64,000 bases of DNA from an uncultured virus (IMG/VR IMGVR_UViG_2061766007_003336) (IMGVR_UViG_2061766007_003336); one strand, 5' to 3'; counted from the first letter of the stretch, positions 157-63,708 are shown. Notes: generated from the sequence alone by a model not told the origin. Numbers and translations: made by a program.

Positions 157-1485
157 ATGGAAAACGTCAACAACAACAAGATTTTTGCGGACGCACTCCG
201 CAAGGCTTTTATTGAAGAACGCGGCCTTACACAGGCAGCACTCACAAGGCTGCTGCAGCTGCCGCCTTCAACCGTCCACAACTGGCTGAGCGGGAGAGCG
301 GTGCCGAGGCCAAGGTTGTTCAACGACCTGAACATCCAGCTTGAGGGAGGTTGGCCTCCTGAAGTCTGGGAGGCTTACCACAGTCTCCAGAAGCCTAAGG
401 CCGCACCTGCACTGGAACCCAAGCCTGTGACAACGTTAGTTGTCAAGCTGGTAGAGGAAACCCCAGCGGTGCCAGCTGAACCTACAGCTGCTACGGAACC
501 TGCTGTAACACCGACGGCACCGGCCGGCAGACGCAGCTACGGCCGTCGCAAAATAGGCCCCTGGCTGCTCCAGGCGAGGGAGATGGCTAACAAGCCGCAG
601 GCCGAGGTTGCGGCTTATGTCGGCGTGATCCCTTCAATCATCTCCCAGTGGGAGCATGACAAGTGGGCTCCGTCTCAAGCGCAGCTTGAGAAATTGAAAG
701 AGCTGCTCGGGGTTGATTTCGACACGAGACCGCTGCAGTCGAAATATCAGCCCGAAGCTCAGGCTGCTGCGGACGTAAAAGAGGCAGTCATCAAGCCGCC
801 GCGCAGGCCTAGGCTTGAAACATTGCTCAAAGCCTGTCAGCCGGACTCAGGCAATGAGCCGATAAAGCTTAATCAGCAGGCTCTTCGGAACCTGGTGGAA
901 GTATGCCACGGCGTAGCTCAACTAGAAGAGCGCAAAGCGGCGCTCATTTCTCAGCTGCTCGAGCCGGAGAAAAAGCTCACGGCCAGGGAGCGTCTTGCTC
1001 ATCTTGCAGACCCGCAGGAAGGCCCGCTGCGTTCTATAAGTGCGGAATCGGGAATCCGATCCTTCGGCCAAATACTGACCACGTCGCTCGCGGGCTGGAG
1101 CAATGATGACAAAGTCAGTTTGACAGGATTAGCCCTGTCAAGGCTGACAGCTCTTGAGCAGGGCGAGACGCCGTCGGCTCAGGAGAGCATAAAACTGCTC
1201 CAGGATCTCGGTCTCGAAGCAGAAGACCTATTCCCCTGCGGACGCTTCGACGACGGATTCCCTGAGCTGCTCAGAGAAATTCTCGAAGAGGCTCAGGTGT
1301 CGACCGCGGAGTTCGCTAAAGTTACGGGTCTCAACCTTGGTCGGGTTGAGAACTGGCTGCAGGAAGAAACTGTTCCGAATAAGGCCGAAATAGGCATCAT
1401 ATCAGGAACCTGCGGTCTCAGCTACAACGCTGTCTGGAACTCAGTGTACAGACCGGATCAGCCGGTCTGGGAAAAAAGAAGGTAA
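157..1485 (+). CDS. Multi-domain XRE/Cro helix-turn-helix protein
   Basis: RBS aaggagg; repeated XRE-type HTHs (LTQAALTRLLQLPPSTVHNWLSGRAVP; PQAEVAAYVGVIPSIISQWEHDKWAP; STAEFAKVTGLNLGRVENWLQEETVP) with Pro/Ala-rich linkers. Confidence 0.85.
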   Translation: MENVNNNKIFADALRKAFIEERGLTQAALTRLLQLPPSTVHNWLSGRAVPRPRLFNDLNIQLEGGWPPEVWEAYHSLQKPKAAPALEPKPVTTLVVKLVEETPAVPAEPTAATEPAVTPTAPAGRRSYGRRKIGPWLLQAREMANKPQAEVAAYVGVIPSIISQWEHDKWAPSQAQLEKLKELLGVDFDTRPLQSKYQPEAQAAADVKEAVIKPPRRPRLETLLKACQPDSGNEPIKLNQQALRNLVEVCHGVAQLEERKAALISQLLEPEKKLTARERLAHLADPQEGPLRSISAESGIRSFGQILTTSLAGWSNDDKVSLTGLALSRLTALEQGETPSAQESIKLLQDLGLEAEDLFPCGRFDDGFPELLREILEEAQVSTAEFAKVTGLNLGRVENWLQEETVPNKAEIGIISGTCGLSYNAVWNSVYRPDQPVWEKRR

Positions 1486-20488: not shown

Positions 20489-21379
20489 ATGCTGAGAATA
20501 GTCCAAGTCGGTGCCGGAGGGACCGGCAGCTGGTTTGCCAGGACGCTGGGTCAAATAATTTGTCAGTACCATGCCCAGTACGGGGACGGCATCCTGCTTG
20601 ATCCGGTAGAATGGCTGATTGCCGACTATGATAAAATTGAGAAGAGGAACCTTCAGCGCCAGCCGTTTCTTGGGGGGATCGGCGTCAATAAGGCTAAGTT
20701 CCTTACAGGTCAGGTGCTTCAGCCTCTTTTTGACATCAACGAAGTAAAAGCCAGGCTGCGGAGGGCGGATGACATGGTTCGCGGTAACGCTCTCGAGCAG
20801 CTGCTCGGGGCAAATCTGAGCAGCAATGACGGTAATCCGGCTCTAGTCCAGTTAGTTGTCAGTTGCGTTGACAATACGTATTCGCGACAGCTTATGGAAG
20901 AGTGTCTGGCAGCAGTAAGACCGAAGCGGACATGGTATCTGAACATGGGCGTCAGCCCTGACGGAGACTGGTTCGTAGAGCGTGTCGCCGCTGACCTGCT
21001 CGTTCCGACACAGTATGACAGTCTTACATACCCGGACGCTATGCTTAGTTGCGGGCAGCGTGCTGAAACAGGTCCTATGCCGCAGACGGTCTACAGTAAC
21101 ATTATGGCAGGCAGTATGGCGGCGCATTCAATCGCTATGCTGGCAGCCGATATACTTAGCGGCAAGGAGCCTAAGAAATTCGTTGGTGTTACTGGAAAGG
21201 ACTTCCAGGCGCAGGAGATTACGGAAGAAGTTTATTTACAATGCCACGCTGCAGACCTGGTAGCCTCGGCATTAAAAACGGAGGAGGAGAAAGATGTTCA
21301 AAATCAAGACGACGATCCCTGTCCCAGTCCAGATGAACTTGGCTGGGGAATCGGCGAAGGAGAAAATGATAATGAATAA
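20489..21379 (+). CDS. ThiF/E1-like adenylyltransferase
   Basis: VGAGGTGS, DYDKIEKRNLQRQ, NKA, SCVDN..SR, and C-terminal SC...Q...N typical of E1s in prokaryotic Ub-like/PRTRC operons. Confidence 0.9.
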   Translation: MLRIVQVGAGGTGSWFARTLGQIICQYHAQYGDGILLDPVEWLIADYDKIEKRNLQRQPFLGGIGVNKAKFLTGQVLQPLFDINEVKARLRRADDMVRGNALEQLLGANLSSNDGNPALVQLVVSCVDNTYSRQLMEECLAAVRPKRTWYLNMGVSPDGDWFVERVAADLLVPTQYDSLTYPDAMLSCGQRAETGPMPQTVYSNIMAGSMAAHSIAMLAADILSGKEPKKFVGVTGKDFQAQEITEEVYLQCHAADLVASALKTEEEKDVQNQDDDPCPSPDELGWGIGEGENDNE

Positions 21380-43843: not shown

Positions 43844-44209
43844 TCACAAAGACATCAGCCTGAGAACGTCTTTCTCAGTGTGCCCGTCCCAGTGCGGAGC
43901 CTTTTCCAGCTCCCTGCAGTCAAACATATCCCAGTCCTTATCCTCATAATGATAGGTATACGGACCTTCGGGCGTGTCGAGTCCGACTATGAACCAACCG
44001 CCTCCGAAACACCTCTCACCATCCTCGTGTCTACGGGATTTCCAGGCCTTGTCCTTGTGGGACTTTACCAGCGCAGCGAACAGGACCATTCTCTGATGAT
44101 ACAGAGAATTAAAAGTGTGAAATCCGTCGGACAGCTCACCTATGTCGTAGATTCCTGCCAGTCTGCAGATTTCGTTACGCAATTCTTTGCTTCCGTTAAC
44201 CATTTCCAT
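43844..44209 (-). CDS. Conserved phage protein with WDGH motif
   Basis: SDG.HTF..LY.QR..LFA, WKS..H.DG, GWFIVG..TP.G..TYHY, AP.WDGHT. Confidence 0.75.
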   Translation of the reverse strand: MEMVNGSKELRNEICRLAGIYDIGELSDGFHTFNSLYHQRMVLFAALVKSHKDKAWKSRRHEDGERCFGGGWFIVGLDTPEGPYTYHYEDKDWDMFDCRELEKAPHWDGHTEKDVLRLMSL

Positions 44210-44927
44210 CATCTCCTCCTTTGATATGTTTTCCCATCCGGTATGCCAGAAGTGTGGATACCGCACCTACTGCCGGTGTCAGTGCATAAGTCCTCCAGCC
44301 TGTCCCGAGTCTCCGTTTTGCCGCAGCCAGAAATCTTTCAGGCGCACCTGATTTTCTCAGAAAGTTAAGACCTGTGCGGTTGGCAGAGAGTTCCCTCGCT
44401 ATTACCGGAATAGATGAAATAAACGGGGCTGCCGCGGCTCCGGCGAGCACGGCACCCGCAGGTGTTCCCGATGCTATTCCGGCAAAGGCTCCAAGAGCAG
44501 GCGTGCCTGCCAGCATCAGAGCCCTCCCTGCCGTTGTAGACATCAGGCTGCTGCCCTCAGCGATCCTGTGGGTCAGCCTTCCCAGCCGGTCGCCGTATCC
44601 TGGAACAAGATTCATAGCGTGCCCCAGCTCGTGCGCTGCGACGGCAGCTTCAGGATACACGCTGAGTAGCTTGCTGCCATGATTGTAAAAGCTTGCAGCA
44701 GCTTCGGGTGCTGCTTTGACTTTCAGACCCATTGACCGTGCCTTATCTGCCACTCTGCCTGCGAACCCGATGTTCTCCAGGCTGCGTGAAGCCTGAGACG
44801 TATCTCTGTTAAATGCTGAGTTCAGCCTGTCGATTTTGTAGGGGTAGTACAAAAGGGGAAGTACTGCGGCAGCTCCGTACATGTACGCCTTGGGGTTAAG
44901 TTCAGACTCGCGGTCCCACCTGTTCAT
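44196..44927 (-). CDS. Membrane-associated HExxH zinc metallopeptidase-like protein
   Basis: AVAAHELGHA, downstream RELSAN..G, hydrophobic helices. Confidence 0.65.
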   Translation of the reverse strand: MNRWDRESELNPKAYMYGAAAVLPLLYYPYKIDRLNSAFNRDTSQASRSLENIGFAGRVADKARSMGLKVKAAPEAAASFYNHGSKLLSVYPEAAVAAHELGHAMNLVPGYGDRLGRLTHRIAEGSSLMSTTAGRALMLAGTPALGAFAGIASGTPAGAVLAGAAAAPFISSIPVIARELSANRTGLNFLRKSGAPERFLAAAKRRLGTGWRTYALTPAVGAVSTLLAYRMGKHIKGGDDGNG

Positions 44928-44939
44928 AATTTCCCTCCT

Positions 44940-47900
44940 TTAGTACTTAGGTCCGTTTTCCTTGAAAGGTCTGCCTACCAGCCACGGTGTGACCGGTGAT
45001 GTTGATTCTGCAGGGCTGACCTTGCCCTCGGCAACCGCTTCGGTGATTGTGCGTTTGATATACTTCTGCGCCAGGTTGCTGACCCAGTCATCTTCAAGCA
45101 TACCTGAAGTGTAGAAACTCTTTACTACAGGTTTGACTCTTACGCCTTCGGGGAATACGAGTATCGTTTTCGGACCTTCCTTTTTGAAATAGTCATCGAT
45201 ATCAGACTGCGTCAGTCTGGTCCCTGCCGAATATTCCCCGACTTCTTCTGCCAGACTCATGCCGGGGAGCAGCTCCGACGGTTTGACGGGAACACCTTTC
45301 TTCTTCCCAAGGTCGAGCAGCGTATTGTAAGAGATTGTGTCACCAGGAAGATACGAATCGAAAGCGCTCATTACTTCAACGTAATTTACAGCACCTTTCG
45401 CTATGACGGCCAGAGTCCTGTCGTCCACACTGCCTTCCGTTACCAGCTTGAGATCCTCAATCAGAGCATCACGCCCTGCCTTGACTCCCTTAAGTCTCGT
45501 CATATCCGTGTAAGGAAGCACTCCTTCAGTGAGTTTGTCACCGAGTTTGACCTTGTCCCCTACCTTCACGAGAATGTCACTGTCGGGATGAACGCGGTAT
45601 TTTTTACCTGATTCCATGTATATCATAGCGGGTGCACCCTTTCTGATCTCAATCTCGCTTACGGTGTCGTCCCTTTCTGACAGCGTAGCGACGCCTGCTT
45701 TGCTGGAGTCACTGCTGAATACGTTGGTGAGTCTCTCGAGACCGCCGCCGCCTACATCCCTGGTGATGTCACGTCCGCCGTGCTTGGAGTCAAGCGCTTT
45801 CTGTGAAATAGGCTCATTGGCGCCCTGCGCTGCTCTGAGTCCTACGTTGGTTCCTATATCAAGAAATTTCCAGTAGGAATCGGTGCCGTAACATTTCTGG
45901 CAGATACCTTCTTTGGCCGCGCATGTCTTCGGCGACCTTACAAGGATCTTCCTGTGGGGCAGCTTGCTCTGGTTGTCAGAGGTAATTACTGATCCCTTCT
46001 TGATTCCCGGAACCGTTTCCTGGATGACTTTCCCCAGAACTTCGTCAGAGTTCCAGTCAACTTCAACTCCGGCGTCTGTTCCGCAGTCTTCCATCGTGAT
46101 GACCTCCTTCATTACGTTGTAGGTCATCAGCTTCAGCATTGCACCGGGCGTAGCTACGTTGAGGGCTGTGGCGATAGCGTCCTTCTTGACCTTAATGTTC
46201 TGCTGCCAGAAGTCATACATATTGAGACCTTCACCGTACGAACCTTTTGTCAGAACTGCAGTCTGAACGGGCTTATCCGGATCATAGGAAAGAATTGGAC
46301 TTACTACGATACTCGCCAGCTGCATGTCGGAACCTTTAGCGCCTGACTCGACATTAAGTCTCAGGTCTCCGGGATGGTTCCTTGCGGCATCCTTTGCTTC
46401 GTTCTGTGCTGACTGGAGCAGCTGCGCCCTTTTCTTGAGGTCTTTCTCGTTTTCGATAGCTCGGGAGTACTTATTCAGAATTTTGTCCCTCTCCTTCGTC
46501 ATCGGCTTAATGTCCTCGACACCTACCGTGCTTCCTATCTCTGTAGCATACTTCGTTCCGAGATGCTGTATCTTGTCGTAGATCTCAGTGATCCTGTCAG
46601 GGGCATTCCTCGCTGCGGTAGCAAACATCTTCTTTGCCGCCTTCTTGTCGCAGGGAACAGGAACATCAGCTGCTCCTTTAAGGATAGCGTTCATATCGGC
46701 CCTGAACTTTTTCGGATCCTTCTTCGACATCTGGTAAAGACCGAGAATGGTTTCGGAAAGGAACCCTATCGACAATCCGCCTATCTTAACGTCGTTGAAC
46801 ACATTCTTTGACAGAAGCATTTTATCCAGTGATCTTGATACTTTGGCATTCGACGGAACGTGGATCTGGATCGCATCGCCGTCGAAGTCTGCGTTCAAAG
46901 GCTGGGTAGCGGTCAGATTAAGATGAATACTGGTGTCAGGAATGATCTTCGGATGTGCTGCAAGCATACCGAATCTGTGCAGTGTGGGCGCACGGTTATA
47001 CAGCACGTTGGTCTCTGCCGTAACATCCTCAAGCGCCTTCCTTGCCTGAGGCGTATGTTCGAGCATCATCTGCGAAGCTTCAAGCGGCGGTACACCGATC
47101 TGCTTGAGCTTGTTCATCACGTGAGGTTCGAACATCTTCCATGCCATAACCTCGGGAATGCCTATCTCGTCCATTGACAGACTTGCATCCGCAACAATTC
47201 TGGCACGGCCGGACAGATCCTGGTTCTTCTTAACCAGTGTACTCTGTATGTAGCCGTTCTTCGGCGAACCCACACCGCTGAGATAGGGAAGGACTCCCCG
47301 TGAACCTTTCTTTCTAAGCTGAATATTTGCCGTTTCTTCTGTGCCTACCAGCGCACCGACGTTGTTGAGCAGCACTTTCTTGGCGTCCGGAGCGAAAGCG
47401 GTGTCCTTCACACTTTTCAGACCTTCATTGGCCAGCATTATATCCTTGTAGAACAGGTTTACATCAGAGACCTGTACGCCTCCGTCCTGGAGTTTGGTGA
47501 TCGGCCGCATGATTGGCGGCGGCACCGGTATTTCCGTAATAATATAATCACTGAGTTTGTCTCCTCTCTTCTGAGTATTCTTAAGGAACCTGAGCTCCTT
47601 GATCTCGTTATTCGACAGGTCATTCTTCTTTGACTTGGCAGTCAGTTCCTTGACCCTGCCGTCGATGTCGAAAGCATCAAGTTCTTTTTTCATCTGCTTC
47701 GTCGTGCTGTTGGCCTGCCACGATTTCATTTCAGCTTCCGATTTTCCGAGAACGAGTCTCAAATGGCCTTCGACCATCGGAGAAATGATCCCGTCCTCAA
47801 GTTTCAGCTTCGACCAGAGTTTTCCGTTCAGGCCGCCGGTGGTGTTGGGGTCAAACAGCCCTTTCTTCATAGGCTCGAGATCTTTTGAGTTAAGAAGTGC

Positions 47901-50900
47901 AGGTGTCTGTATCTCTCTGTGCTGTGCAAGTCTGTCAGTTATTTTGTCGGTAACCGGCATGATTGATATTGACTCATTGTCCTGTGTAACGTAGCCGCCT
48001 GCTGCTGTCAGCAGACCTTTCGTCTGCTCCCAGGTTCCCGAGGTGGTCTTTGTCGGAACAGGAATGCCCATTTCCATGCCTTTCCAGTACTCATCATTTT
48101 TCTGGGCCTTGATGTTTCCTGCGTCGGTCAGGAACGCTCTGGCATTGTGGGCTACCAGCGCCCCGAACTCTGCAGCACCGATACCTTTGGCACCTTCGTG
48201 ACCGCCCTTTGACGGAGTGCCTGCATACGAGTAACTGGGGCCTACGCCTCTGGCAGAAAGATCCTTGTCGCCCTTAAGCAGTTTCATAAAATATGTGTAA
48301 CCTACAGCGATAGGCCGCTCGATGTTCTTTCCGGTCGTCGGATCGAAGAGGATCTCCTTGTCCTTGATACCGTATTTCTGCATCTCTTTAACAGTGAAGT
48401 CGTTCAGGTTATCAGCCGTCGGGTTTTTCGCTACCGGAACCTTGTAATGTTCCTTTTTCTTTCCGGAAGCTACGATCTTTCCAAGCGCATTTTCGTAGAC
48501 CTGGCCGGGATTGATACGTGTCGTTACTACAATCGACGAATGGATTACGTCAATAGGCTGGCCGCTTTCGTCCCTTATCATCTGATCGTCCGGAATGATC
48601 TTGCCTATCGTTCCCTTGTTGCCGTACATACCGGTAAGCTTGTCACCTACGACAGCCCTGTCTTCGGAAACAACCGTCACTGACACAAATCCTTTTTTCG
48701 ACGCAACATCAACAACTTTTCCGTCAGTGACTGTTTCGTACAGCTGTGAGCCGTCGACCAGGTCAACTACGATCTTATTGCTGATCTTGCCGAGCTGGGC
48801 TATTCTGTCGTCAGGTGTTCTTCTTTCTATGATAAGCATGACCGGTTCGTGATATTTCACGGTCTCGCCTTTCTTGATTACGCCGTTTGCGTCATATTTG
48901 TCAAAGTCAACAAGATTCTGGTACTTGCTGCCGAACATGTTCATAAAGCGCTGCTTGTCCAGAATGAAGTTATCGTTGATCTTGGAACTGAACGTATGGT
49001 AATGCAGCGACGTGAGCTTTTCCGCACAGCTCTCGGAAATAACCACGCTGTCCTCAGAGTTCTCACCGTAGTACGGCATGAACGCCAGCTTCAGGTTCTT
49101 GCCGAGCGCGAGTTTGCCGTCGTCGGTGGTGTAGCCGTCCTGTACAACCATCTGTCCCTTTCTGATCTTGTCTCCCGGCTTGACCAGAGGGGTCTGGTTG
49201 ACACCGGTGTTGGTAGCGAACGGCAGATATTCATGGTACTGAATGACCTGTTTCTTCCCGTTTTCGTCCTTCAGCTCAATCTTTCCGTCACCGACTTTTG
49301 TAACGGTACCGCTGTAGGGAGACTCCATAGGAAGAAGCGATTCAAGATCCTTCCTCATTTTTCTGTATGTTGACACCCCCTTGTCGTCAACCGGCTCTAC
49401 CAGAGGAGTTTCTCCGTACTTCAGGGGAACAGCCTGTGTGACCTGGCGAGCCGTCATAAAACTTCTGTTGCCCTGTGTAGCCTGGGGAAAAGGAACAAGC
49501 TGGTTTACCGTATTGAAAAGGCTGGAAGTTCCGTGCGGGAGCTTGTAGTCGTAATGTTCTCCCTTCTTGAGCTTCTGCATCTTTCCCTTGTACATGACGT
49601 ATCTGTTCTTGTCCGAAGCAACCTCAGGAACAAGTACCTTCTTATCATATGTATCGGCAAGCGGGATATTTTTGACTTCGCCGCCGGGAGTCGAAAGCGG
49701 GAGGTAAATTTCTCCTGATTTGTCGATCTTGACATCGTCGGTCATGTTCAGCTGGATACCTACGTTCATGCCCTGAGCCGAAGCGGTAGGATCGATGATG
49801 CCGAAGTATGAGGAGTGAACGCCTCGTTTAGCACGTGACACCGCGTTCACGTCGGAGATACCTCCCATGCCCAGCGGAGAGATCTTTGTACTCGCAACGT
49901 ACATTCCTATCGGATTGTACTGCGGATCAAGCCTGCTCAGATCGGAAGAGTTGACCAGGCTGACGAGATACTTCGAAAAAATATTATTGAAGATTTTGGA
50001 ATACGCATGTCCTAGTTTGATTTTATGTCTTACGCCGTTCGCGATCTCGTTAGTGACTTTCTGAAGTCTGTCCTTGAAAAGCATGTTCGGCGGATAGAGC
50101 TTCTGGTAGTAAAGGTCGTCGGGGTCAATACCTTCATCCTCCCCTGCATTGACTTCGTAGAACTTCTTAAGGATCTCCTTCATAAAGGCCTTGTCAATCT
50201 TCTTGTGTTCATCGTTGAACAGGTACTTCGTAGTCTTGGGATCGACCGCAGTCTGTTCAAAATATTCCTTACAGCCCTTCCTGAGATCTTCAAGCGGGAT
50301 TGTTCTTACGTCCTCCTGCTTGAACTCATAGAGTTTGCCGTAGAGCTTTCTGAAGTTGTTGATCTGGGTCTGCTGTGCATCTACAGCGTCCCAGTGGTCT
50401 TTGGCAAACTGTTCATCAGTACAGTCAACAAGATCTTTTCTGGTAAAACCAAGACTCTCAAGCATGGGTCTGATTGCAACCGATCCGTTACCGATGTTCA
50501 TTACCACCAGGCCGGAAGCATCATCCATTGATAAATCAAAGTTACGTCCCTTGGCAAGGTTGAAATCCGCTACGGCTCCGCCCTGGCCGCCGTTAGTCGT
50601 ATAGACGTAAACCGACGACTTTCTTCTGGGCTGGTTGATCAGGTTGTATTCTGACCCTGTTACCATAAATGTGTTCCTGCCTTCAAGCAGCTGGGGAAGC
50701 TGGCCTATCTGGAGATGCCTTTCAAGTACTTTTTTTCTTCCTCCGTCATACTCCACTACGTCCCCGTAGACCTTGGTCAGAATACTTTTCTGAAAGGTTA
50801 CAGCCTCCTTGATGGCCATGGTCGAGTCTGCAGAGGAGTCTCTTTTAAACTCCACGTTCTCGAACGTAATATACGGTCCGTCGGCCTTCTTGGTCAACGG

Positions 50901-50987
50901 TATCTTCATCTCTTCGATTCCTTCCTTTACGCTCTGCTCCACATCATCGGGCTTGCAGCCCCATCCGACTTTTGAAAGTTCAGGCAT
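44940..50987 (-). CDS. rpoBC: Single-chain fused beta-beta' DNA-directed RNA polymerase (~2015 aa)
   Basis: beta motifs (ISPLGMGG, LALGKN..AFMPY.G.NSEDS, GDKLTG.YGNKG, RINPGQ) then beta' motifs (IPVPPP.MRP, DLSGR, NRAPTLHR, NADFDGD at 46875-46895, EDCGT, RSP.TC....ICQKCYG, AAQ..NEP.SQ); ATG at 50987 after gggag. Confidence 0.95.
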   Translation of the reverse strand: MPELSKVGWGCKPDDVEQSVKEGIEEMKIPLTKKADGPYITFENVEFKRDSSADSTMAIKEAVTFQKSILTKVYGDVVEYDGGRKKVLERHLQIGQLPQLLEGRNTFMVTGSEYNLINQPRRKSSVYVYTTNGGQGGAVADFNLAKGRNFDLSMDDASGLVVMNIGNGSVAIRPMLESLGFTRKDLVDCTDEQFAKDHWDAVDAQQTQINNFRKLYGKLYEFKQEDVRTIPLEDLRKGCKEYFEQTAVDPKTTKYLFNDEHKKIDKAFMKEILKKFYEVNAGEDEGIDPDDLYYQKLYPPNMLFKDRLQKVTNEIANGVRHKIKLGHAYSKIFNNIFSKYLVSLVNSSDLSRLDPQYNPIGMYVASTKISPLGMGGISDVNAVSRAKRGVHSSYFGIIDPTASAQGMNVGIQLNMTDDVKIDKSGEIYLPLSTPGGEVKNIPLADTYDKKVLVPEVASDKNRYVMYKGKMQKLKKGEHYDYKLPHGTSSLFNTVNQLVPFPQATQGNRSFMTARQVTQAVPLKYGETPLVEPVDDKGVSTYRKMRKDLESLLPMESPYSGTVTKVGDGKIELKDENGKKQVIQYHEYLPFATNTGVNQTPLVKPGDKIRKGQMVVQDGYTTDDGKLALGKNLKLAFMPYYGENSEDSVVISESCAEKLTSLHYHTFSSKINDNFILDKQRFMNMFGSKYQNLVDFDKYDANGVIKKGETVKYHEPVMLIIERRTPDDRIAQLGKISNKIVVDLVDGSQLYETVTDGKVVDVASKKGFVSVTVVSEDRAVVGDKLTGMYGNKGTIGKIIPDDQMIRDESGQPIDVIHSSIVVTTRINPGQVYENALGKIVASGKKKEHYKVPVAKNPTADNLNDFTVKEMQKYGIKDKEILFDPTTGKNIERPIAVGYTYFMKLLKGDKDLSARGVGPSYSYAGTPSKGGHEGAKGIGAAEFGALVAHNARAFLTDAGNIKAQKNDEYWKGMEMGIPVPTKTTSGTWEQTKGLLTAAGGYVTQDNESISIMPVTDKITDRLAQHREIQTPALLNSKDLEPMKKGLFDPNTTGGLNGKLWSKLKLEDGIISPMVEGHLRLVLGKSEAEMKSWQANSTTKQMKKELDAFDIDGRVKELTAKSKKNDLSNNEIKELRFLKNTQKRGDKLSDYIITEIPVPPPIMRPITKLQDGGVQVSDVNLFYKDIMLANEGLKSVKDTAFAPDAKKVLLNNVGALVGTEETANIQLRKKGSRGVLPYLSGVGSPKNGYIQSTLVKKNQDLSGRARIVADASLSMDEIGIPEVMAWKMFEPHVMNKLKQIGVPPLEASQMMLEHTPQARKALEDVTAETNVLYNRAPTLHRFGMLAAHPKIIPDTSIHLNLTATQPLNADFDGDAIQIHVPSNAKVSRSLDKMLLSKNVFNDVKIGGLSIGFLSETILGLYQMSKKDPKKFRADMNAILKGAADVPVPCDKKAAKKMFATAARNAPDRITEIYDKIQHLGTKYATEIGSTVGVEDIKPMTKERDKILNKYSRAIENEKDLKKRAQLLQSAQNEAKDAARNHPGDLRLNVESGAKGSDMQLASIVVSPILSYDPDKPVQTAVLTKGSYGEGLNMYDFWQQNIKVKKDAIATALNVATPGAMLKLMTYNVMKEVITMEDCGTDAGVEVDWNSDEVLGKVIQETVPGIKKGSVITSDNQSKLPHRKILVRSPKTCAAKEGICQKCYGTDSYWKFLDIGTNVGLRAAQGANEPISQKALDSKHGGRDITRDVGGGGLERLTNVFSSDSSKAGVATLSERDDTVSEIEIRKGAPAMIYMESGKKYRVHPDSDILVKVGDKVKLGDKLTEGVLPYTDMTRLKGVKAGRDALIEDLKLVTEGSVDDRTLAVIAKGAVNYVEVMSAFDSYLPGDTISYNTLLDLGKKKGVPVKPSELLPGMSLAEEVGEYSAGTRLTQSDIDDYFKKEGPKTILVFPEGVRVKPVVKSFYTSGMLEDDWVSNLAQKYIKRTITEAVAEGKVSPAESTSPVTPWLVGRPFKENGPKY

Positions 50988-51076
50988 AGTAATCTCCCGC
51001 CAACAGTTAACACCCGGCCAATATACTATTAAAAGCAAAAAAAATAAAGAATGCGCTGAGGCGTTTTTCCCGTATG

Positions 51077-51092
51077 AAAATTGACATAAGTA
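51077..51092 (+). promoter_or_regulatory. Plus-strand phage promoter-like motif, copy 5
   Basis: aaaattgacataagta upstream of the NAD cluster. Confidence 0.6.
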
Positions 51093-51153
51093 GGTGAGAC
51101 AGGAGTTTCGGCTGAACCCTGTCAAGTTGATCAACTTAATTTTGGAGGAGAAC

Positions 51154-51990
51154 ATGAAAGCAACATTCTCAGAACTCGTCGCTGCAATCAGAAACGATCT
51201 CGCGGGACGAAAGGCGGTTATAGGAATCTCCGGCGGAAAAGATTCCTCGATAGCAGCTGCGCTCATTGCGCTGGCTATCGGAAAAGAAAACGTCGTCGGC
51301 ATCTCGATGCCGAACGGTGAAGGCAAAGAAGACGAACCTTTCGTTAAGGCTTTGGAGAAATGGTTTGACCGGGAGTTCATCAAGGTCAACATCAAAAGCA
51401 CTTATGAAACGATGCTGGCTCAGATGAAAGGGATCGAGATCCTGGAGGACACCAGGATCAATCTTGCTCCGAGAATCAGGATGGCAATGCTGTTTGCCTA
51501 TGCGCAGAGTATCCCCGGTTCGCGGGTAATAAATACCTGCAACCTGAGCGAGGATATGCTCGGCTACTCGACGTTATTCGGGGATCTGGCCGGCAGCTAT
51601 GCCCCGTTGAAGTATTTTACGGTAAACGAGATCATCTCGGTTCTCGGGGAAACTCTCATCAAAAGCTACGGATTTCCCAGAGAGCTTGTTTACAGAGTTC
51701 CTACGGACGGTCTGTGCGGCAGCACTGATGAAGAGAAACTAGGCTTATCGTACTACGAGCTTGACAGCTTTATCAGGACCGGTAAAACCCTCGGGCCGCA
51801 AGACTGGTTCCTTGAGCGGGATTACGGCTGTTCAAACCTCGATCGTCGTATCGACTTTTTAGCTAAAGTACGATCTAAATACGAGGCCAATAAGTTCAAA
51901 CTCCGGATTGTCAATATACCTGGCCCGTCCATTGACCCGGCACAAGGTAAGAATTTCCTGGTCTACCCTAAGAACGGCGAAACAGAATAA
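51154..51990 (+). CDS. nadE: NH3-dependent NAD+ synthetase
   Basis: VIGISGGKDSS, NLAPRIRM, NTCNLSE...GYST.FGD, PTDGL...TDEEKLG.SY.ELD; ATG at 51154 after ggaggag. Confidence 0.92.
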   Translation: MKATFSELVAAIRNDLAGRKAVIGISGGKDSSIAAALIALAIGKENVVGISMPNGEGKEDEPFVKALEKWFDREFIKVNIKSTYETMLAQMKGIEILEDTRINLAPRIRMAMLFAYAQSIPGSRVINTCNLSEDMLGYSTLFGDLAGSYAPLKYFTVNEIISVLGETLIKSYGFPRELVYRVPTDGLCGSTDEEKLGLSYYELDSFIRTGKTLGPQDWFLERDYGCSNLDRRIDFLAKVRSKYEANKFKLRIVNIPGPSIDPAQGKNFLVYPKNGETE

Positions 51991-52010
51991 AATTTTTAAA
52001 GGAGGAGAAA

Positions 52011-52595
52011 ATGACAACAAAGTATTTGCTCGTCATAGACGGACAAAACGACTTCATCACCGGATCACTCAGAAATGAGGAAGCGATCCGCAAACTTCCT
52101 AACATTCTTAAGAAAGTTAAGGAGACGGATGTTAACGAGACCATGATCATCGCGACCCAGGACACTCACGGCGAGAATTATCTTGAGACGCTTGAGGGGC
52201 AGAAGCTGCCTGTCCCGCATTGTATCTACAGCTCGTGGGGCTGGCAGATCGAGGATGAACTCTACAGACTTTTGACTGAAGTCAAACCGACAGAGATCCG
52301 GAAACCGTTCAAACCGGCCACCGGCGTCGGCATTGTGACCAAGCCGACGTTCGGCAGCCTTGACCTGCTGGAAGGCATCTACACAGAGGTAGAAGATACC
52401 CCGGTAGAATTTGAGATCATAGGGTACTGCACGGATATCTGTGTGATATCAAACGCTCTCCTTCTGAGAGCGAAGTTCCCCAATGCTAAGATAACGGTCG
52501 ACGCATCATGCTGCGCGGGCATAACGCCTGAGCTTCATAAAGCTGCGCTGGCGGTTATGAAAAGCTGTCAGATTGACGTCGTTAACGAAGAATAG
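52011..52595 (+). CDS. pncA: Nicotinamidase (isochorismatase family)
   Basis: LLVIDGQNDF, TQDTH, PHC, KPTFGS, GYCTDICV. Confidence 0.9.
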   Translation: MTTKYLLVIDGQNDFITGSLRNEEAIRKLPNILKKVKETDVNETMIIATQDTHGENYLETLEGQKLPVPHCIYSSWGWQIEDELYRLLTEVKPTEIRKPFKPATGVGIVTKPTFGSLDLLEGIYTEVEDTPVEFEIIGYCTDICVISNALLLRAKFPNAKITVDASCCAGITPELHKAALAVMKSCQIDVVNEE

Positions 52596-52603
52596 GAGGC
52601 GAT

Positions 52604-53419
52604 ATGATAATTATAGACGGCAAACCTTATAAATGGGAGCATTTTCCCAATAACGAAACCAAATTTCCGTTTGTTGATATCCGAACCGATTCACAGATCA
52701 CCTGGCTTTGGGAAAATAACGAGGAGTTCTTCGTTATCCAGATGATCACGAAACACCTTAAGGACCACGACGGGAAGGTCAAACTCGTTGTTCCGTTCTG
52801 TCCCTACGGGCAGCAGGACCGCAAGATGCCTGGACAGCTCTTCAGCTGGAAATACTTTGCGCAACTGGTCAATGACGCAGGCTTCTACAGCGTCGTTATT
52901 GTCGACCCCCACAGCAGAGTTATGACCGCGTCACTCAACCGCAGTTATGCAACGTATCTGGAGCTTGACATGAGTACCCTGTTCCGCAGAGGGTACGATA
53001 TGGTGTTTTACCCTGACAACGGGGCTGCCAAGAAATATAGCGAGATTTACACCGATGTCCCTTACCGTTTCGGCAACAAGAAACGCGACCTGAGCACCGG
53101 AAAGCTCACCGGTTACGAGGTTATTGCCGATAAAAAAGATATCGAGGGCCAGAAAATTCTGATCGTAGACGATATCTGCATGGGCGGAAGCACCTTCAGG
53201 GAAGCTGCGAAAGCGCTCCTTGAGATGGGCGCTGAATGCGTGGGTCTCCAGATCACGCATTTTATGCCCCAGTCAGAAGAGTTCCTGAAGCATTTCAGGG
53301 AATACGGCATCAGCGAGGTTTACACTTACGGCGACGGTATATCCCGTCTGCTCTACGCAAATATGGATGCCGAGGAGTGTAAGTTTATTTCTTTAACGTC
53401 TAGACTGATAGGAGAATAA
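52604..53419 (+). CDS. prs: PRPP-synthetase-like pyrophosphokinase (Adps-like by context)
   Basis: FPNNE, PYGQQDR, DPHS, PDNGA, ILIVDDICMGGSTF. Confidence 0.85.
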   Translation: MIIIDGKPYKWEHFPNNETKFPFVDIRTDSQITWLWENNEEFFVIQMITKHLKDHDGKVKLVVPFCPYGQQDRKMPGQLFSWKYFAQLVNDAGFYSVVIVDPHSRVMTASLNRSYATYLELDMSTLFRRGYDMVFYPDNGAAKKYSEIYTDVPYRFGNKKRDLSTGKLTGYEVIADKKDIEGQKILIVDDICMGGSTFREAAKALLEMGAECVGLQITHFMPQSEEFLKHFREYGISEVYTYGDGISRLLYANMDAEECKFISLTSRLIGE

Positions 53420-53420
53420 T

Positions 53421-55226
53421 ATGAGTAGACCATGCACACTTTTGAAGACAGACTTCTACAAGCTCTGTCACCTGAATATGTACGACAAGCGTGTCGTACG
53501 TATGACGTCCTATCTGACCCCCAGAGGGTCGAGATTTCCTGAACAGAACTGGGTGATGATGTTCGGACTGCAGATGTTTGTACACAGATATCTGCTCAAG
53601 GACTTTGACAACAACTTCTTCTCACTCCCGTGGGAAGAAATCGAGGAGCAGTACAAAACGGTTCTTGAGAAATCGCTCCTCTATTCCGAAAGGGAATACA
53701 GTCAGACTCTCGAGAAGGTAAAGGCGCTTCACGACCTCGGATATCTGCCGGTAAAGGTCAGGGGTCTCCCTGAAGGCAAAAAGGTTCCTGTAGGCGTTCC
53801 CTGCGTTGAGATCAGTGTTACAGACGACCGTTTCGCCTGGGTAGGCCAGGCAGTCGAATGTCTTCTTTCCTGCAGTATCTGGCATCCGATGGTGTCGGCA
53901 ACAGTCGGTTACCGTTACCGCGAGCTTGCGCATGAGTTCGCGAAAAAGTCTTCGGACAAGTCGGACGGAACGATGTCGATGTGTGACTTCTCGCTTAGAG
54001 GTCAGGAGAGTATGGAATCAGCGGTCGCCAGCAGTGCAGGCTGGCTGGCATCGATGAAGAACAGCTCTACCGTTCCGGCAAGGGCACTCATAGAAGAGTG
54101 CTATCCGGCAACGGACAAGGACAAACTTCAGGTCTACGGTCTTACTTCGACAGAGCATTCCGTTATGACAACGGACTTCGCCATCAACGGCGATGAACGT
54201 GAGACCTACCGCAGACTCCTTACAGAGGTCTATCCGAACACCAGTTTCGCGGCTGTATGCGACAGCTACGACTACTGGCGCGTACTTACCGAGATACTTC
54301 CGTCGCTCCGACCTGAAATCGAGGCGCACAAAGGCTTCATAGGAGTACGTCACGACTCGGCTGAACCTGTAGAGGCACTCTGCGGCATTCCCCAGATCGT
54401 AATAGAACGCCCAGCAGCGCCGGATCCGAAAGGCGACTATAAGGACCTTTACGAGAAAGCGATCTCAGCATGCGGCGACTGTTTCGCCGAATACCAGGGA
54501 TCCGGTCAGAAGTTCGGTGAAGAGTTCAAGGTCTTCATCATCCTTACCGACAAGGAACATCCATACCCGAACCTCGGCAACCAGTATCTCGGCAAGATCG
54601 TTACAGGCAAATACGCTGTCGACAGATCAGACGGAATCTCCTATAAGATCACGAACGTCGAAACCCGTGAACGCACGTGGGAAGAGAAGGGTATGATCGA
54701 AACGGTATGGGAGATCTTCGGAGGAACAATCAACTCCAAAGGCTATCGTGTAAATAACCCGCACGTAAAGGCGGTTTACGGAGATTCTATCACCCTTGAG
54801 CGTGCAAGGAAGATTTTCGAGCGTATGGAAGCCAAAAAGTTCGCTATCGATAATATCAGTCTCGGCGTAGGCAGCTTCTCGATGCAGGCTGTCGAGTGGG
54901 GCGGTAAGCTCTACCCCTTCACAAGGGATACGTTCAGCATTGCCGTCAAATGCACATGGGCACAGCTGGACAACGGCACCAGGATTCCCGTCTATAAGGA
55001 TCCCAAAGGATTCACTGGCAAAAAGAGCCAGAAGGGCCTCTGCCTTGTTACCGAGGATCCTGAAAAAGGCTACGTCTTCACCGACGGTCACCTCGATCCT
55101 GAGCCGCTTGAGGCCGATCCTCATAATGCAATGATCACCTACTTTGCTAACGGATCCGAGGCTGAAGGACCGCAGCGTGACTTCGCTTACGTTCGTGAGA
55201 ACATCAATCAGTATTTCAAAGACTAA
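53421..55226 (+). CDS. nadV: NAMPT-family phosphoribosyltransferase (Namat-like by context)
   Basis: TDFYKLCH, DFSLRG, STEHSVM, DSYD, RHDS, GDSIT, TRDT, KDP...KKSQKG. Confidence 0.88.
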   Translation: MSRPCTLLKTDFYKLCHLNMYDKRVVRMTSYLTPRGSRFPEQNWVMMFGLQMFVHRYLLKDFDNNFFSLPWEEIEEQYKTVLEKSLLYSEREYSQTLEKVKALHDLGYLPVKVRGLPEGKKVPVGVPCVEISVTDDRFAWVGQAVECLLSCSIWHPMVSATVGYRYRELAHEFAKKSSDKSDGTMSMCDFSLRGQESMESAVASSAGWLASMKNSSTVPARALIEECYPATDKDKLQVYGLTSTEHSVMTTDFAINGDERETYRRLLTEVYPNTSFAAVCDSYDYWRVLTEILPSLRPEIEAHKGFIGVRHDSAEPVEALCGIPQIVIERPAAPDPKGDYKDLYEKAISACGDCFAEYQGSGQKFGEEFKVFIILTDKEHPYPNLGNQYLGKIVTGKYAVDRSDGISYKITNVETRERTWEEKGMIETVWEIFGGTINSKGYRVNNPHVKAVYGDSITLERARKIFERMEAKKFAIDNISLGVGSFSMQAVEWGGKLYPFTRDTFSIAVKCTWAQLDNGTRIPVYKDPKGFTGKKSQKGLCLVTEDPEKGYVFTDGHLDPEPLEADPHNAMITYFANGSEAEGPQRDFAYVRENINQYFKD

Positions 55227-55763: not shown

Positions 55764-56519
55764 ATGCGGTTCGGAATCATTTTAGCGCGACTGAGAAAGA
55801 AAAAAGGCTATTCCCAGGACGGTCTGTCCCGCAAGCTCGGTCTCAGTCTCTGTCCACTCAGGCAGTGGGAAAAAGGTGATAGGCTGCCGACGGAAGACAA
55901 TTTTCTGAAGATCCTGAAAGTGTTCGGAAGAAACGAGATGCTGATAGAGGCCTACTATAGGGCCCGCAACTCGGAAGGCGGATCAGGCACACGCGCCTTC
56001 AGAAACCCGCAGGGAGAGTCTTTCGGCAGCAGACTGAGACAGCTGATGACCGAACGTGAGCTCTCTGCCAACTCACTAGCCAGGTATCTTAAGGTGACGA
56101 CCAATATGGTACGGACATGGCTCAGGGACCAGAAACTTCCTTGTGCAGGCAACTTCGACAAGCTCTTTGACCTGCTCGGGGAGGATCTTGTTCTGGTAGA
56201 GCTGTACGTCTCTACACAGAAGTTTCAGCACAGCTGGGCCATGCTGCGCAACAACCAGAAAAAACAGAAGAGGTGTCCAGGACCGAGATCAGCATTCTGT
56301 GACACGCTGAGAAACGAAAGGCTGAAGCTGCACATGTCCCAGGCCGACCTGGGGCATGAGCTCGGGATCAGCAACTCGGCTGTGTCTTTGTGGGAATCGA
56401 AAGGAGTGCTCCCCGATCCGCCTAAATTCGAGCGGCTGGCGGGCATCCTCAATCTGTCTCAGGAGACCCGTGACGAATATGCAAAACTTAAGAAAAAGCG
56501 GTTGAAAGGAGGAGTGTGA
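55764..56519 (+). CDS. Triple XRE helix-turn-helix protein
   Basis: Three repeats of F...LR......SQ..L...LG.S...V..WE....P. Confidence 0.88.
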   Translation: MRFGIILARLRKKKGYSQDGLSRKLGLSLCPLRQWEKGDRLPTEDNFLKILKVFGRNEMLIEAYYRARNSEGGSGTRAFRNPQGESFGSRLRQLMTERELSANSLARYLKVTTNMVRTWLRDQKLPCAGNFDKLFDLLGEDLVLVELYVSTQKFQHSWAMLRNNQKKQKRCPGPRSAFCDTLRNERLKLHMSQADLGHELGISNSAVSLWESKGVLPDPPKFERLAGILNLSQETRDEYAKLKKKRLKGGV

Positions 56520-62828: not shown

Positions 62829-63431
62829 ATGGAAATAATTGATAAAATCAGTTTGAGACCTGCTGTGGTCGAAAAGGATCAGGATGAAATTTATCTTTTT
62901 CTCTCTGATCGGAATGAGATCATCTTACACGACTGTAACAGCGATGAGTGCCTGTTAAGTCCGACAATGCGGAGTGTACCGCTCTGGGTAGGTACCGCTC
63001 AGGGGCCTAACTCATCACTGACGGCATGGATGTATGACGAACACACGCCGGAAAGCTGTCGTATAGCAGGACTGTCGCAGGATTCTGTTAACAGAGTATT
63101 CAAAGACATCGAAAGGGGAATACTGATAGTAAAATACCTTACGGATATCCGGGCGATCGGACAGATATCAAGACTTGTGCTGGATTCAGATGTAACATAC
63201 ATTGACACAACACGGGTAAGAATAGTAACTTCCGTCTGGAAGGACATAAAGCAGAACCTGACGTATGACGCAGCACTTGCCAAAGAACGTGTCGATAAGC
63301 ACAGGAAGGCTAGGATGGAGCAGATAGACAAAGACCTGGCATACTACCGGACTGCGATTAACAAATGTCTTGAAGAAAAGAAACAATTACAGGAGGCCTG
63401 TGAGAAGGTGGAGGGGTTCAATGAAGATTAA
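62829..63431 (+). CDS. Hypothetical protein with C-terminal coiled coil
   Basis: RBS aaggagg. Confidence 0.75.
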   Translation: MEIIDKISLRPAVVEKDQDEIYLFLSDRNEIILHDCNSDECLLSPTMRSVPLWVGTAQGPNSSLTAWMYDEHTPESCRIAGLSQDSVNRVFKDIERGILIVKYLTDIRAIGQISRLVLDSDVTYIDTTRVRIVTSVWKDIKQNLTYDAALAKERVDKHRKARMEQIDKDLAYYRTAINKCLEEKKQLQEACEKVEGFNED

Positions 63432-63708
63432 ATCTATGAATGATCGCGTGTTTGTTACCCTGTCAAGTGTCAGACCTTGTCCTAATGACTGCGGCTATCT
63501 TCTCGGAGAAGTGGCTGCATGCCCGAAGCGGAATCTTATTGATATTCTGATCGGAACTCAGGGAATAGAAGTCGGTGACACAGTCATATTTGGAAGGTTA
63601 TGCGGATCGCGTATTGATTTGGAGGACGAAGCATATTATATAGTCCACTCCAAAGACATTACGGGAGTAGTCAAGGAGGCACATAATGAGAGTAAAAATG
63701 AAAAGTGA
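63421..63708 (+). CDS. groES: GroES/Cpn10-like co-chaperonin
   Basis: MKIKSMNDRVFV...GEVAA...IEVGDTVIF....G..I......IV...DITGVV. Confidence 0.75.
   Translation: MKIKSMNDRVFVTLSSVRPCPNDCGYLLGEVAACPKRNLIDILIGTQGIEVGDTVIFGRLCGSRIDLEDEAYYIVHSKDITGVVKEAHNESKNEK

Follow-up and report, generated by a model that had tools for sequence, protein, structure and literature searches.

A four-gene NAD+ module in an uncultured virus

The sequence analyzed here, a window of 64,000 nucleotides (nt) from an uncultured virus (IMG/VR IMGVR_UViG_2061766007_003336), carries four co-oriented genes at 51154-55226 of the + strand. In order, they encode an NAD+ (nicotinamide adenine dinucleotide) synthetase (NadE), a PncA-like nicotinamidase, a protein resembling phosphoribosyl pyrophosphate (PRPP) synthetase (Prs-like), and a protein resembling nicotinamide phosphoribosyltransferase (NAMPT-like; hereafter the transferase). 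An earlier note on this DNA had described a tight nadE-pncA-Prs-like-NAMPT-like operon, and four + strand open reading frames (ORFs) were found with exactly these boundaries, separated by gaps of only 20, 8, and 1 bp. Adjacent Prs-like and NAMPT-fold genes are characteristic of NARP1, a pathway of NAD+ restoration whose two enzymes, Adps and Namat, occur in phages SPbetaL1, Bas63, and ICP1 and in Paenibacillus foliorum (bioRxiv 10.1101/2024.02.11.579819; PMC12774641; PMC13586617). We give a probability of roughly 0.6 to the reading that the four genes constitute a nicotinate-type version of NARP1, which would rebuild NAD+ via nicotinic acid adenine dinucleotide (NaAD). The four enzyme families and the tight operon, like the remodeled pocket and the conserved linkage described below, are evident at the level of sequence.

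The first gene (51154..51990, + strand) encodes a NadE of 278 amino acids (aa) that matched Pfam PF02540 NAD_synthase (7.1e-38) and passed the TIGR00552 cut-off (115.3 bits; cut-off 63.65). Its SGGKDS P-loop starts at residue 26 and there is no glutaminase domain, as in a single-domain NH3-dependent enzyme; the closest solved structure is the NH3-dependent NAD+ synthetase 2E18 (1.5e-24). All solved matches are named NAD+ synthetase, a name that does not discriminate between NaAD and nicotinic acid mononucleotide (NaMN) as the substrate. The PncA-like protein (52011..52595, + strand; 194 aa) has an isochorismatase fold (Pfam PF00857 Isochorismatase, 4.1e-19) and matched phrog_19305 (5e-30), whose function is listed as unknown. 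Its closest solved match is the Pyrococcus horikoshii pyrazinamidase/nicotinamidase (1ILW/1IM5, 1.9e-6), and alignment to 1ILW placed the motifs VIDGQNDF (D10), QDTH (residue 50), PHC (69), and TDICV (141), which we take to be the Asp-Lys-Cys triad and the D-x-H...H metal site of nicotinamidases. The homolog in phage phAss-1 is annotated as a nicotinamidase, and with a score of 21.9 bits for the NCBIfam model PRK11609 (cut-off 174), the protein does not qualify as an equivalog of that family. The short Prs paralog (52604..53419, + strand; 271 aa; phrog_619, 2.9e-55) is Adps-like, and it is adjacent to, co-oriented with, and 1 bp from the gene for the Namat-like transferase (53421..55226, + strand; 601 aa; phrog_448, 2e-140; Pfam NAPRTase and NAMPT_N).

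A remodeled base pocket in a Namat-like transferase

Among solved structures, the transferase was most similar to Namat of SPbetaL1 (9W5X/9W5W, 301 bits, E 1.3e-88), followed by Haemophilus ducreyi NadV (9KE8, 267 bits), Xcc Nampt (149 bits), and human NAMPT (132 bits). An AlphaFold2 model (mean pLDDT 87.7, pTM 0.89) has the Namat fold, and Foldseek searches with this model returned Namat first (TM-score 0.92, target-normalized), then H. ducreyi NadV, and then NAMPT. The sole NCBIfam match at E <=0.01 was NF006629 (370 bits; cut-off 405), a model named nicotinate phosphoribosyltransferase that, despite its name, presumably covers NadV/NAMPT-type proteins; a PncB-type model match was absent and Pfam NAMPT_N was present. 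Equivalents of the catalytic and ribose-phosphate residues D13, Y15, F189, R192, H245, R306, and D308 are all present in the window protein and are invariant in both of the pocket types that we now describe.

In Namat, Phe189 and Tyr15' stack on either side of nicotinamide, to which Asp215 makes a hydrogen bond (PMC12774641). Alignment to 9W5X showed that Phe189, Ser190, Arg192, and the catalytic histidine are conserved in the window transferase and that Ser216 aligns with Namat Asp215 (human NAMPT D219). Three other residues of the base site are also replaced, and the altered codons (within 53982..54149, + strand) specify Cys188 (53982-53984), Asn214 (54060-54062), Ser216 (54066-54068), and Ser243 (54147-54149) in place of the His, Gly, Asp/Glu, and Ala of canonical Namats. 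When 38 sequences with Ala or Ser at column 216 were compared with 57 sequences with Asp or Glu, dereplicated at 85%, seven alignment columns had no residue in common between the two types, and four of these line the base site. From the Asp/Glu type to the Ala/Ser type, column 188 changes from His to Gly/Cys/Ala, column 214 from Gly to Asn/Lys/Arg, column 216 from Asp/Glu to Ala/Ser (Ala in 29 and Ser in nine of the 38), and column 243 from Ala to Ser. The split also appeared in an unbiased sample drawn from 1.84 billion proteins and made up of the 150 best cluster representatives at 50% identity, where column 216 was Ala/Ser in 49, Val in one, and Asp/Glu in 100; Ser243 accompanied 47/49 of the Ala/Ser representatives and Ala243 accompanied 99/100 of the Asp/Glu ones.

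By motif alignment made here, columns 188, 214, 216, and 243 correspond to H191, G217, D219, and A244 of human NAMPT. Khan et al. in 2006 reportedly observed that NAMPT with the D219S mutation can use nicotinic acid. In a review table, D219S is entered as a switch of substrate affinity, and H191R, G217R, and A244M are entered as mutations that prevent inhibitors from binding (PMC4919578); a second review names Asp219 as the residue that sets NAMPT substrate specificity (PMC7096376). The earlier note had reasoned that a nicotinamidase in this operon makes sense only if the transferase uses nicotinic acid, and the changed base pocket that this reasoning predicts was found, in Ser216 and the three further residues. 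The pocket argues for nicotinic acid as the base but is silent on the donor.

A subgroup of canonical Namats has Glu for Asp at the amide-binding position (our loci L145-L147, L150, L151, L155, L161, L164, L172, L177, L178, L182, and L185-L195). In most of these Glu-type loci, the Adps-like gene follows the transferase gene instead of preceding it.

Linkage of pocket type with nicotinamidase and NAD+ synthetase

Four scans of IMG/VR supplied the loci for comparison: one with the window transferase as query (16 loci), one with an alignment of its relatives (80 kept of 306), one with the window PncA-like protein (18 loci), and, as a control, one with an alignment of canonical Namats (80 kept of 519). 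Neighboring ORFs were scored with hidden Markov models built from the module's own proteins, and counts refer to distinct transferase proteins of at least 400 aa. Among the 84 loci of the Ala/Ser type, PncA accompanied the transferase in 76, the Prs-like gene in 80, NadE in 76, and all three in 73, and a gene for a Macro domain was present in 56. Among the 72 loci of the Asp/Glu type, the Prs-like gene was found in 70 and a Macro gene in three, but PncA, NadE, and the full set were found in none. The Macro gene was identified by Pfam (PF01661, 1.8e-6), and its likeness to the phosphatase Adpp is one of family. The four-gene arrangement is far beyond chance, given that 73 of the 84 distinct relatives share the gene set. 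Contigs of one large metagenome set carry both pocket types, so that a difference in habitat is not enough to account for the split. With the PncA-like protein as the anchor (n=18), an Ala/Ser-type transferase lay within 6 kb in 10 loci. The order of the genes varies: with P, A, T, and E standing for PncA, the Adps-like gene, the transferase, and NadE, the order PATE was seen 44 times, ATEP 28 times, and EPAT in the window only.

These counts bear on the reading in which the window encodes canonical, nicotinamide-using NARP1, with Adps and Namat making NAD+ and with PncA and NadE as unrelated or auxiliary neighbors. In favor of this reading, the window has the side-by-side Prs-like and NAMPT-like genes of NARP1, and the catalytic core of the transferase is intact. 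However, no member of the clade retains the amide-binding Asp or the three other canonical pocket residues, the operon's own nicotinamidase would consume the nicotinamide that canonical NARP1 needs, and PncA and NadE each accompany 76/84 transferases of the Ala/Ser pocket type and 0/72 of the Asp/Glu type. We regard canonical NARP1 at this locus as highly improbable.

A maximum-likelihood tree of 96 transferase sequences placed 37 Ala/Ser rows in one clade (SH-aLRT 100), with the phAss-1 protein apart on a long branch. Of the phylogenetic comparison called for by the earlier note, this tree was built and the Ala/Ser types do group together; independent origins of the Ala/Ser pocket, a possibility raised by the long phAss-1 branch, were not upheld, as all 38 Ala/Ser rows fall on one side of a branch (support 78). 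Because a single origin of the Ala/Ser type is possible, the evidence is one of long-term conserved linkage and not of repeated convergence. This linkage has outlasted rearrangements and coexists with two architectures of NadE, in a clade with members that are as little as ~37% identical to the window protein. The Prs-like partners cluster in parallel with the transferases, one starred set comprising 27 Ala-linked, nine Ser-linked, and six Asp-linked rows.

On one viral contig (L111:5113-7390), two Prs-like genes flank a PncA-like gene, and no Namat-like ORF was found within 6 kb.

The predicted NaAD route and its main rival

In the route that we propose, PncA would convert the nicotinamide released by NAD+ cleavage to nicotinic acid; the Adps-like Prs paralog would convert ADP-ribose (ADPR) and ATP to ADPR pyrophosphate (ADPR-PP); the transferase, which lacks the acidic residue that reads the amide, would join nicotinic acid and ADPR-PP to give NaAD directly; and NadE would convert NaAD to NAD+ with ammonia and ATP. 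Because NaAD would be released directly, an adenylyltransferase for NaMN or nicotinamide mononucleotide (NMN) would not be needed. This four-step route explains the presence of the four genes most economically. We infer the substrates of every step, above all the ADPR-PP donor, and the role of the module from homology and gene context.

The window contains 133 ORFs of at least 90 aa, of which 125 were given to Pfam in bulk; the other eight are the four cluster genes (nadE in a longer 51094-51990 form), which were scanned separately, and four ORFs nested inside them, one on the + strand and three antisense. In agreement with the earlier note, which had claimed that neither cluster nor window encodes an adenylyltransferase, no match to the NMN adenylyltransferase (NMNAT) family PF01467 (CTP_transf_like) was found in the 125 ORFs or the four cluster genes, a result that covers recognizable sequences in the window; a divergent NMNAT, or one outside the window, may exist. 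The pairing of Nampt with an NMN adenylyltransferase that marks NARP2 was likewise not seen among the same ORFs. PF01467 also found no match in four of five module-bearing phage contigs rated 90-100% complete by CheckV, and the fifth had a weak match (25.3 bits) at least ~15 kb from the module.

Three lines of evidence bear on the donor. First, the Prs-like protein has features of Adps. It scored 84.4 bits against the canonical PRPP synthetase model TIGR01251, under the cut-off of 113, and aligned to ICP1 Adps with 37% identity over 170 aa (E 8e-24), compared with 4e-13 for the best solved PRPP synthetase. Its PP loop, DDICMGGSTF, contains the Adps-type Cys and Phe and is without the DT of the E. 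coli Prs loop (DDMIDTGGT), which has a role in ribose-5-phosphate binding. At 271 aa, which is also the median of the clade, it is shorter than ICP1/canonical Adps (280) and E. coli Prs (315). The remodeled PP loop Cys215-Ser220, the Phe221 lid, and the absence of the C-terminal helices alpha11-alpha12 are described as traits of Adps (PMC13586617). Cys215 is present in 27/37 and Phe221 in 24/37 of the Prs-like partners of the clade. The window protein also has Lys185, His121, Asp161, Asp212, and Asp213 (Adps numbering), residues that are common to PRPP synthetases and do not discriminate.

Second, the transferase keeps most of the residues that would clamp the adenine of the donor. The selectivity-clamp helix (SCH) of Namat is marked by the motif GSX(phi)X(phi)X(phi)TRD, in which positions 3 and 7 are aromatic (PMC12774641). 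The corresponding region of the window protein, GSFSMQAVEWGGKLYPFTRD (54870..54929, + strand), reads GSF, a nine-residue insertion, and PFTRD, which retains Phe at position 3 and has an aromatic residue directly before TRD. At the SCL stacking position, where Arg, Lys, or Tyr is allowed, Arg38 of the window protein aligns with Arg40 of SPbetaL1 Namat. Among the 38 Ala/Ser-type sequences, the SCL residue is Arg in 33, the position-3 residue of the SCH is aromatic in 37, and an aromatic residue precedes TRD in 33. By comparison, the position-3 aromatic is missing in true Nampts, where H. ducreyi NadV has Gln and Xcc Nampt and RB43 Nampt have Gly. In phAss-1, which also encodes PncA and NadE, the transferase has both an Ala pocket and a clamp motif that is canonical throughout, a combination that we count in favor of an ADPR-PP donor.

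Third, a Macro gene lies in or beside the module in 56/84 relatives. In NARP1-AP of Vibrio phage Gary, Adps and Namat are joined by the Macro-domain phosphatase Adpp, which converts ADPR-1''-phosphate to ADPR and is present in 15% of NARP1 operons (bioRxiv 10.64898/2026.01.28.702374). The Macro genes, the Adps-type features of the Prs-like protein, and the mostly retained adenine-clamp residues favor ADP-ribose chemistry. Together with the pocket change and the linkage (76/84 vs 0/72), they support, on balance, the path through NaAD and all four genes that the earlier note had put forward.

The main rival to the NaAD route is salvage of the ordinary Preiss-Handler type, in which PncA would supply nicotinic acid, the Prs-like enzyme would make PRPP, and the transferase would make NaMN, which host NadD would convert to NaAD for completion by the phage NadE. 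A number of observations favor this rival and weigh against an ADPR-PP donor. The pocket change argues for nicotinic acid and says nothing about the donor, and Namat itself keeps PRPP activity (PMC12774641). H. ducreyi NadV, a PRPP-using Nampt, is nearly as similar to the transferase as Namat is, and the only NCBIfam match is nicotinate phosphoribosyltransferase by name and below its cut-off. The clamp helix is interrupted by the nine-residue insertion, modeled as a hairpin, and the aromatic expected at position 7 instead sits immediately before TRD. In the window Prs-like protein, R87, F92, and D216 of Adps are replaced by Gln, Met, and Met, and Asp216 is lost across the clade of Prs-like partners. 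The window itself has no Macro gene. All three module-bearing bacterial strains described below have NadD elsewhere in the genome, and one of the three is without another NAPRTase-family gene, which fits a PncB-like role for the module transferase.

The linkage evidence has its own weak points. Eleven of the 84 Ala/Ser loci are short of at least one partner in the DNA covered, and three of them (L011-L013) are short of all three, several of the 11 being cut by a contig end or having flanks of only 6 kb. Eight of the 18 PncA-anchored loci have no Namat-like ORF within 6 kb. The diagnostic Ser243 is part of the pattern STEH on which the Ala/Ser scans relied, so that the uniformity of type is partly built in; the neighbor counts are unaffected. 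The contrast between the pocket types may, moreover, represent one event followed by inheritance.

Other observations speak against Preiss-Handler salvage. A second, dedicated Prs paralog would be needless where a canonical Prs exists, and this paralog has Adps-type PP-loop residues in place of the DT of E. coli Prs. The transferases retain a clamp Arg and aromatics that are absent from true Nampts, a Macro gene is present in 56/84 loci, and no nadD accompanies the module in annotated loci. We consider salvage through PRPP and host NadD clearly less likely than the NaAD route, though the strongest of the alternative pathways.

Bacterial counterparts and biological role

A scan of species-representative genomes returned 396 relatives of the transferase, of which 80 were kept and 79 scored. 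PncA, the Prs-like gene, and NadE accompanied the transferase in 62/79, mostly in gut or rumen Clostridia. NadE comes in two architectures: of 67 distinct NadE partners in these genomes, 22 were longer than 500 aa, the one that was examined having a CN_hydrolase domain. The module is chromosomal in three cultured strains, Pseudoruminococcus massiliensis, Clostridium sp. HCP1S3_C6, and Filifactor villosus, where its flanking genes are cellular and include asd, YaaA, PspA, and AhpC-family genes. In all three, a regulator with Nudix and NrtR_WHD domains adjoins the module or lies within 2 kb of it; NrtR senses ADP-ribose. Each strain also encodes a canonical Prs elsewhere (390-417 bits against TIGR01251), and the module Prs-like copy scored 84-107 bits, under the cut-off. 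According to the literature, NARP1 is also found in bacteria.

By analogy with NARP1, the module would restore NAD+ to phage-infected cells after attack by NAD-cleaving defenses; in bacteria, the NrtR-adjoining module may recycle NAD from ADP-ribose. Since the module in Clostridia is chromosomal and linked to NrtR, the anti-defense role is an analogy and not a finding. The chemistry could be as proposed and the phage module could act as an auxiliary metabolic function that boosts host NAD+ in general. The chromosomal location beside NrtR, among ordinary cellular genes, would fit this idea, as would the window, where no defense or anti-defense gene was recognized next to the module by Pfam analysis of window ORFs or by PADLOC analysis of the cluster and five downstream ORFs. 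Against a general boost, NARP1 counters Thoeris, DSR, Nezha, Kongming, and SPARSA-type NADases (literature including PMC12774641), the Macro/Adpp addition counters aRES (bioRxiv 10.64898/2026.01.28.702374), and the products of NADase effectors are exactly ADP-ribose and nicotinamide. We view a general boost as the less probable role, one that nevertheless deserves some weight. The fuller proposal, in which the transferase would be a nicotinate ADP-ribose transferase in a self-contained route that is used by gut Clostridia under NrtR and by their phages and that counters NAD-depleting immunity, has in our estimate slightly better than even odds.

Depletion of NAD+ is among the commonest bacterial anti-phage strategies, and NARP1, NARP2, and NARP3 are the known phage answers. 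The module is most likely a variant, as yet a predicted one, of a known phage counter-defense pathway in which nicotinic acid replaces nicotinamide. If so, one pocket change would shift a counter-defense pathway to another form of the vitamin, and the conversion of nicotinic acid and ADPR-PP to NaAD would be a new reaction for NAD biochemistry. It would also explain many genes that are now annotated as nicotinamide/nicotinate phosphoribosyltransferase and ribose-phosphate pyrophosphokinase, the Ala/Ser type making up about one-third of the 150 nearest cluster representatives of the window transferase. The chromosomal module in cultured gut Clostridia would extend the relevance to NAD recycling in the gut microbiome, where the route is testable in culturable strains.

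Relation to known pathways

The module resembles NARP1 in its adjacent Prs-like and NAMPT-fold genes, in a transferase that is closest to solved Namat and that keeps the catalytic His, the ribose-phosphate residues, the clamp Arg, and the position-3 aromatic, in a short Prs-like partner with Lys185, Cys215, and Phe221, and in having no need of an adenylyltransferase. It differs from NARP1 in the replacement of Asp215 by Ser (Ala in most relatives) and of the pocket His, Gly, and Ala, in the clamp-helix insertion, in the loss of Adps Asp216, in the nicotinamidase and NAD synthetase joined to the pair, and in the predicted product, which would be NaAD rather than NAD+. The Macro genes of its relatives recall NARP1-AP, whereas the window module has none and those of the relatives are assigned by Pfam PF01661 only. 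Another NARP1 partner, the RyR-domain protein RyDEP, is described as converting cyclic ADPR signals to ADPR for NARP1 (bioRxiv 10.64898/2026.05.28.727677).

As in the Preiss-Handler pathway (PncA, PncB, NadD, NadE), a nicotinamidase would act first, an NAD synthetase would act last, and NaAD would be an intermediate, but here the middle enzyme has a NAMPT/Namat rather than a PncB fold, a dedicated Adps-like Prs paralog is present, and the module has no NadD. NARP2 (Nampt and a bifunctional NMNAT/Nudix protein, phage KVP40) and NARP3 (PnuC-like and NadR-like proteins, phage Bas30) are further examples of phage-encoded NAD+ restoration (PMC13464706). Unlike the route proposed here, both use amidated intermediates and need an adenylyltransferase, for which the window yielded no gene.

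A parallel in gene content is phage phAss-1 (OQ749652.1; PMC10607447), where genes for a nicotinamidase, a Prs-like protein, a NAMPT-like protein of the Ala type, and an NAD synthase lie in a row. Unlike the window transferase, that of phAss-1 has a canonical clamp motif, GAYTYQYVTRD. The NAD synthase of this genome (our locus L199) is WIC39685.1, which is labeled 'hypothetical protein' and matched PF02540 (7e-45); its gene lies downstream of those annotated as nicotinamidase, Prs, and NAMPT. Genetic code 15 is assigned to phAss-1, which also has a suppressor tRNA. In the available text of the phAss-1 paper, the nicotinamidase appears in a table and no pathway reading is given (PMC10607447).

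We found no description in the literature of a nicotinate-type NARP1 or of the synthesis of NaAD from nicotinic acid and ADPR-PP, although closed bioRxiv supplements may list such neighbors. In the accessible text of the NARP1 preprint (bioRxiv 10.1101/2024.02.11.579819), the terms nicotinic acid, NadE, PncA, nicotinamidase, deamid, and NaAD do not occur, and the accessible part of the NARP3 paper mentions nicotinic acid as background only (PMC13464706).

Inserts in the transferase and surroundings of the module

Residues 327-421 of the transferase form a 95-residue insert (54399..54683, + strand), seen as a gap in the alignment to 9W5X, that was modeled as two helices and a three-stranded sheet (block pLDDT 49-85) and gave no Pfam match. 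The site is variable in the family, with no insert, ~95 residues, or ~300 residues, as in a 921-aa relative (L205), and 25/150 of the nearest cluster representatives have lengths of 700-1114 aa. Mobile elements such as inteins might account for the long inserts. No fusion protein joining two of the four families, which would count as Rosetta-stone evidence, was found; the 921-aa relative was considered as a Namat-NadE fusion and rejected, being a Namat-like protein with a ~300-residue insert.

A divergent intergenic region of 166 bp (50988..51153) separates nadE from an RNA polymerase gene on the - strand and carries the nadE ribosome-binding site, read from the sequence as GGAGGA, 4 nt 5' of the ATG. 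A scan of 50988-51153 for the sigma-70 consensus found no + strand site, and phage promoters may be of another type. The numbers of sigma-70 promoter-like sites (seven, 4.3 expected) and terminator-like sites (three, 5.6 expected) were uninformative.

The polymerase gene (44940-50987, - strand), which sits divergently upstream of the NAD module, is a single gene of 2015 aa in which RNA polymerase beta-like and beta'-like parts are fused (Rpb2_6, 4.8e-40; Rpb1 domains; NADFDGD motif), and it matched polymerase-subunit PHROGs of jumbo phages. Because relatives of the module occur on IMG/VR viral contigs and the polymerase matches jumbo-phage PHROGs, a phage origin is plausible, with a large phage as the probable source. 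Neither Pfam analysis of the 125 window ORFs nor PHROG analysis of 43 large ORFs recognized a capsid, terminase, or tail gene, and the window has no tRNA gene. Most of the element is dark matter, with Pfam matches in just 12 of the 125 ORFs, the cluster genes having been scanned apart, and with PHROG matches in six of the 43 large ORFs. A blastn search of the cluster against a phage collection returned a single 147-bp match and no close sequenced relative.

PADLOC analysis of the four genes and five downstream ORFs gave no usable match, only weak phosphoribosyltransferase-domain matches on the Prs-like protein (ShosT, 7.5e-6; PsyrT, 3e-4) and helix-turn-helix matches on 55764-56519. The latter ORF (+ strand), ~500 bp downstream of the NAD module, and that at 157-1485 (+ strand) encode proteins with at least three Cro/C1-type helix-turn-helix matches each. 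Elsewhere in the window are genes for a ThiF-family protein (20489-21379, + strand; 4.8e-9), a WDGH-domain protein (43844-44266, - strand; 7.9e-42), and a GroES-like Cpn10 (63370-63708, + strand; 2.4e-7).

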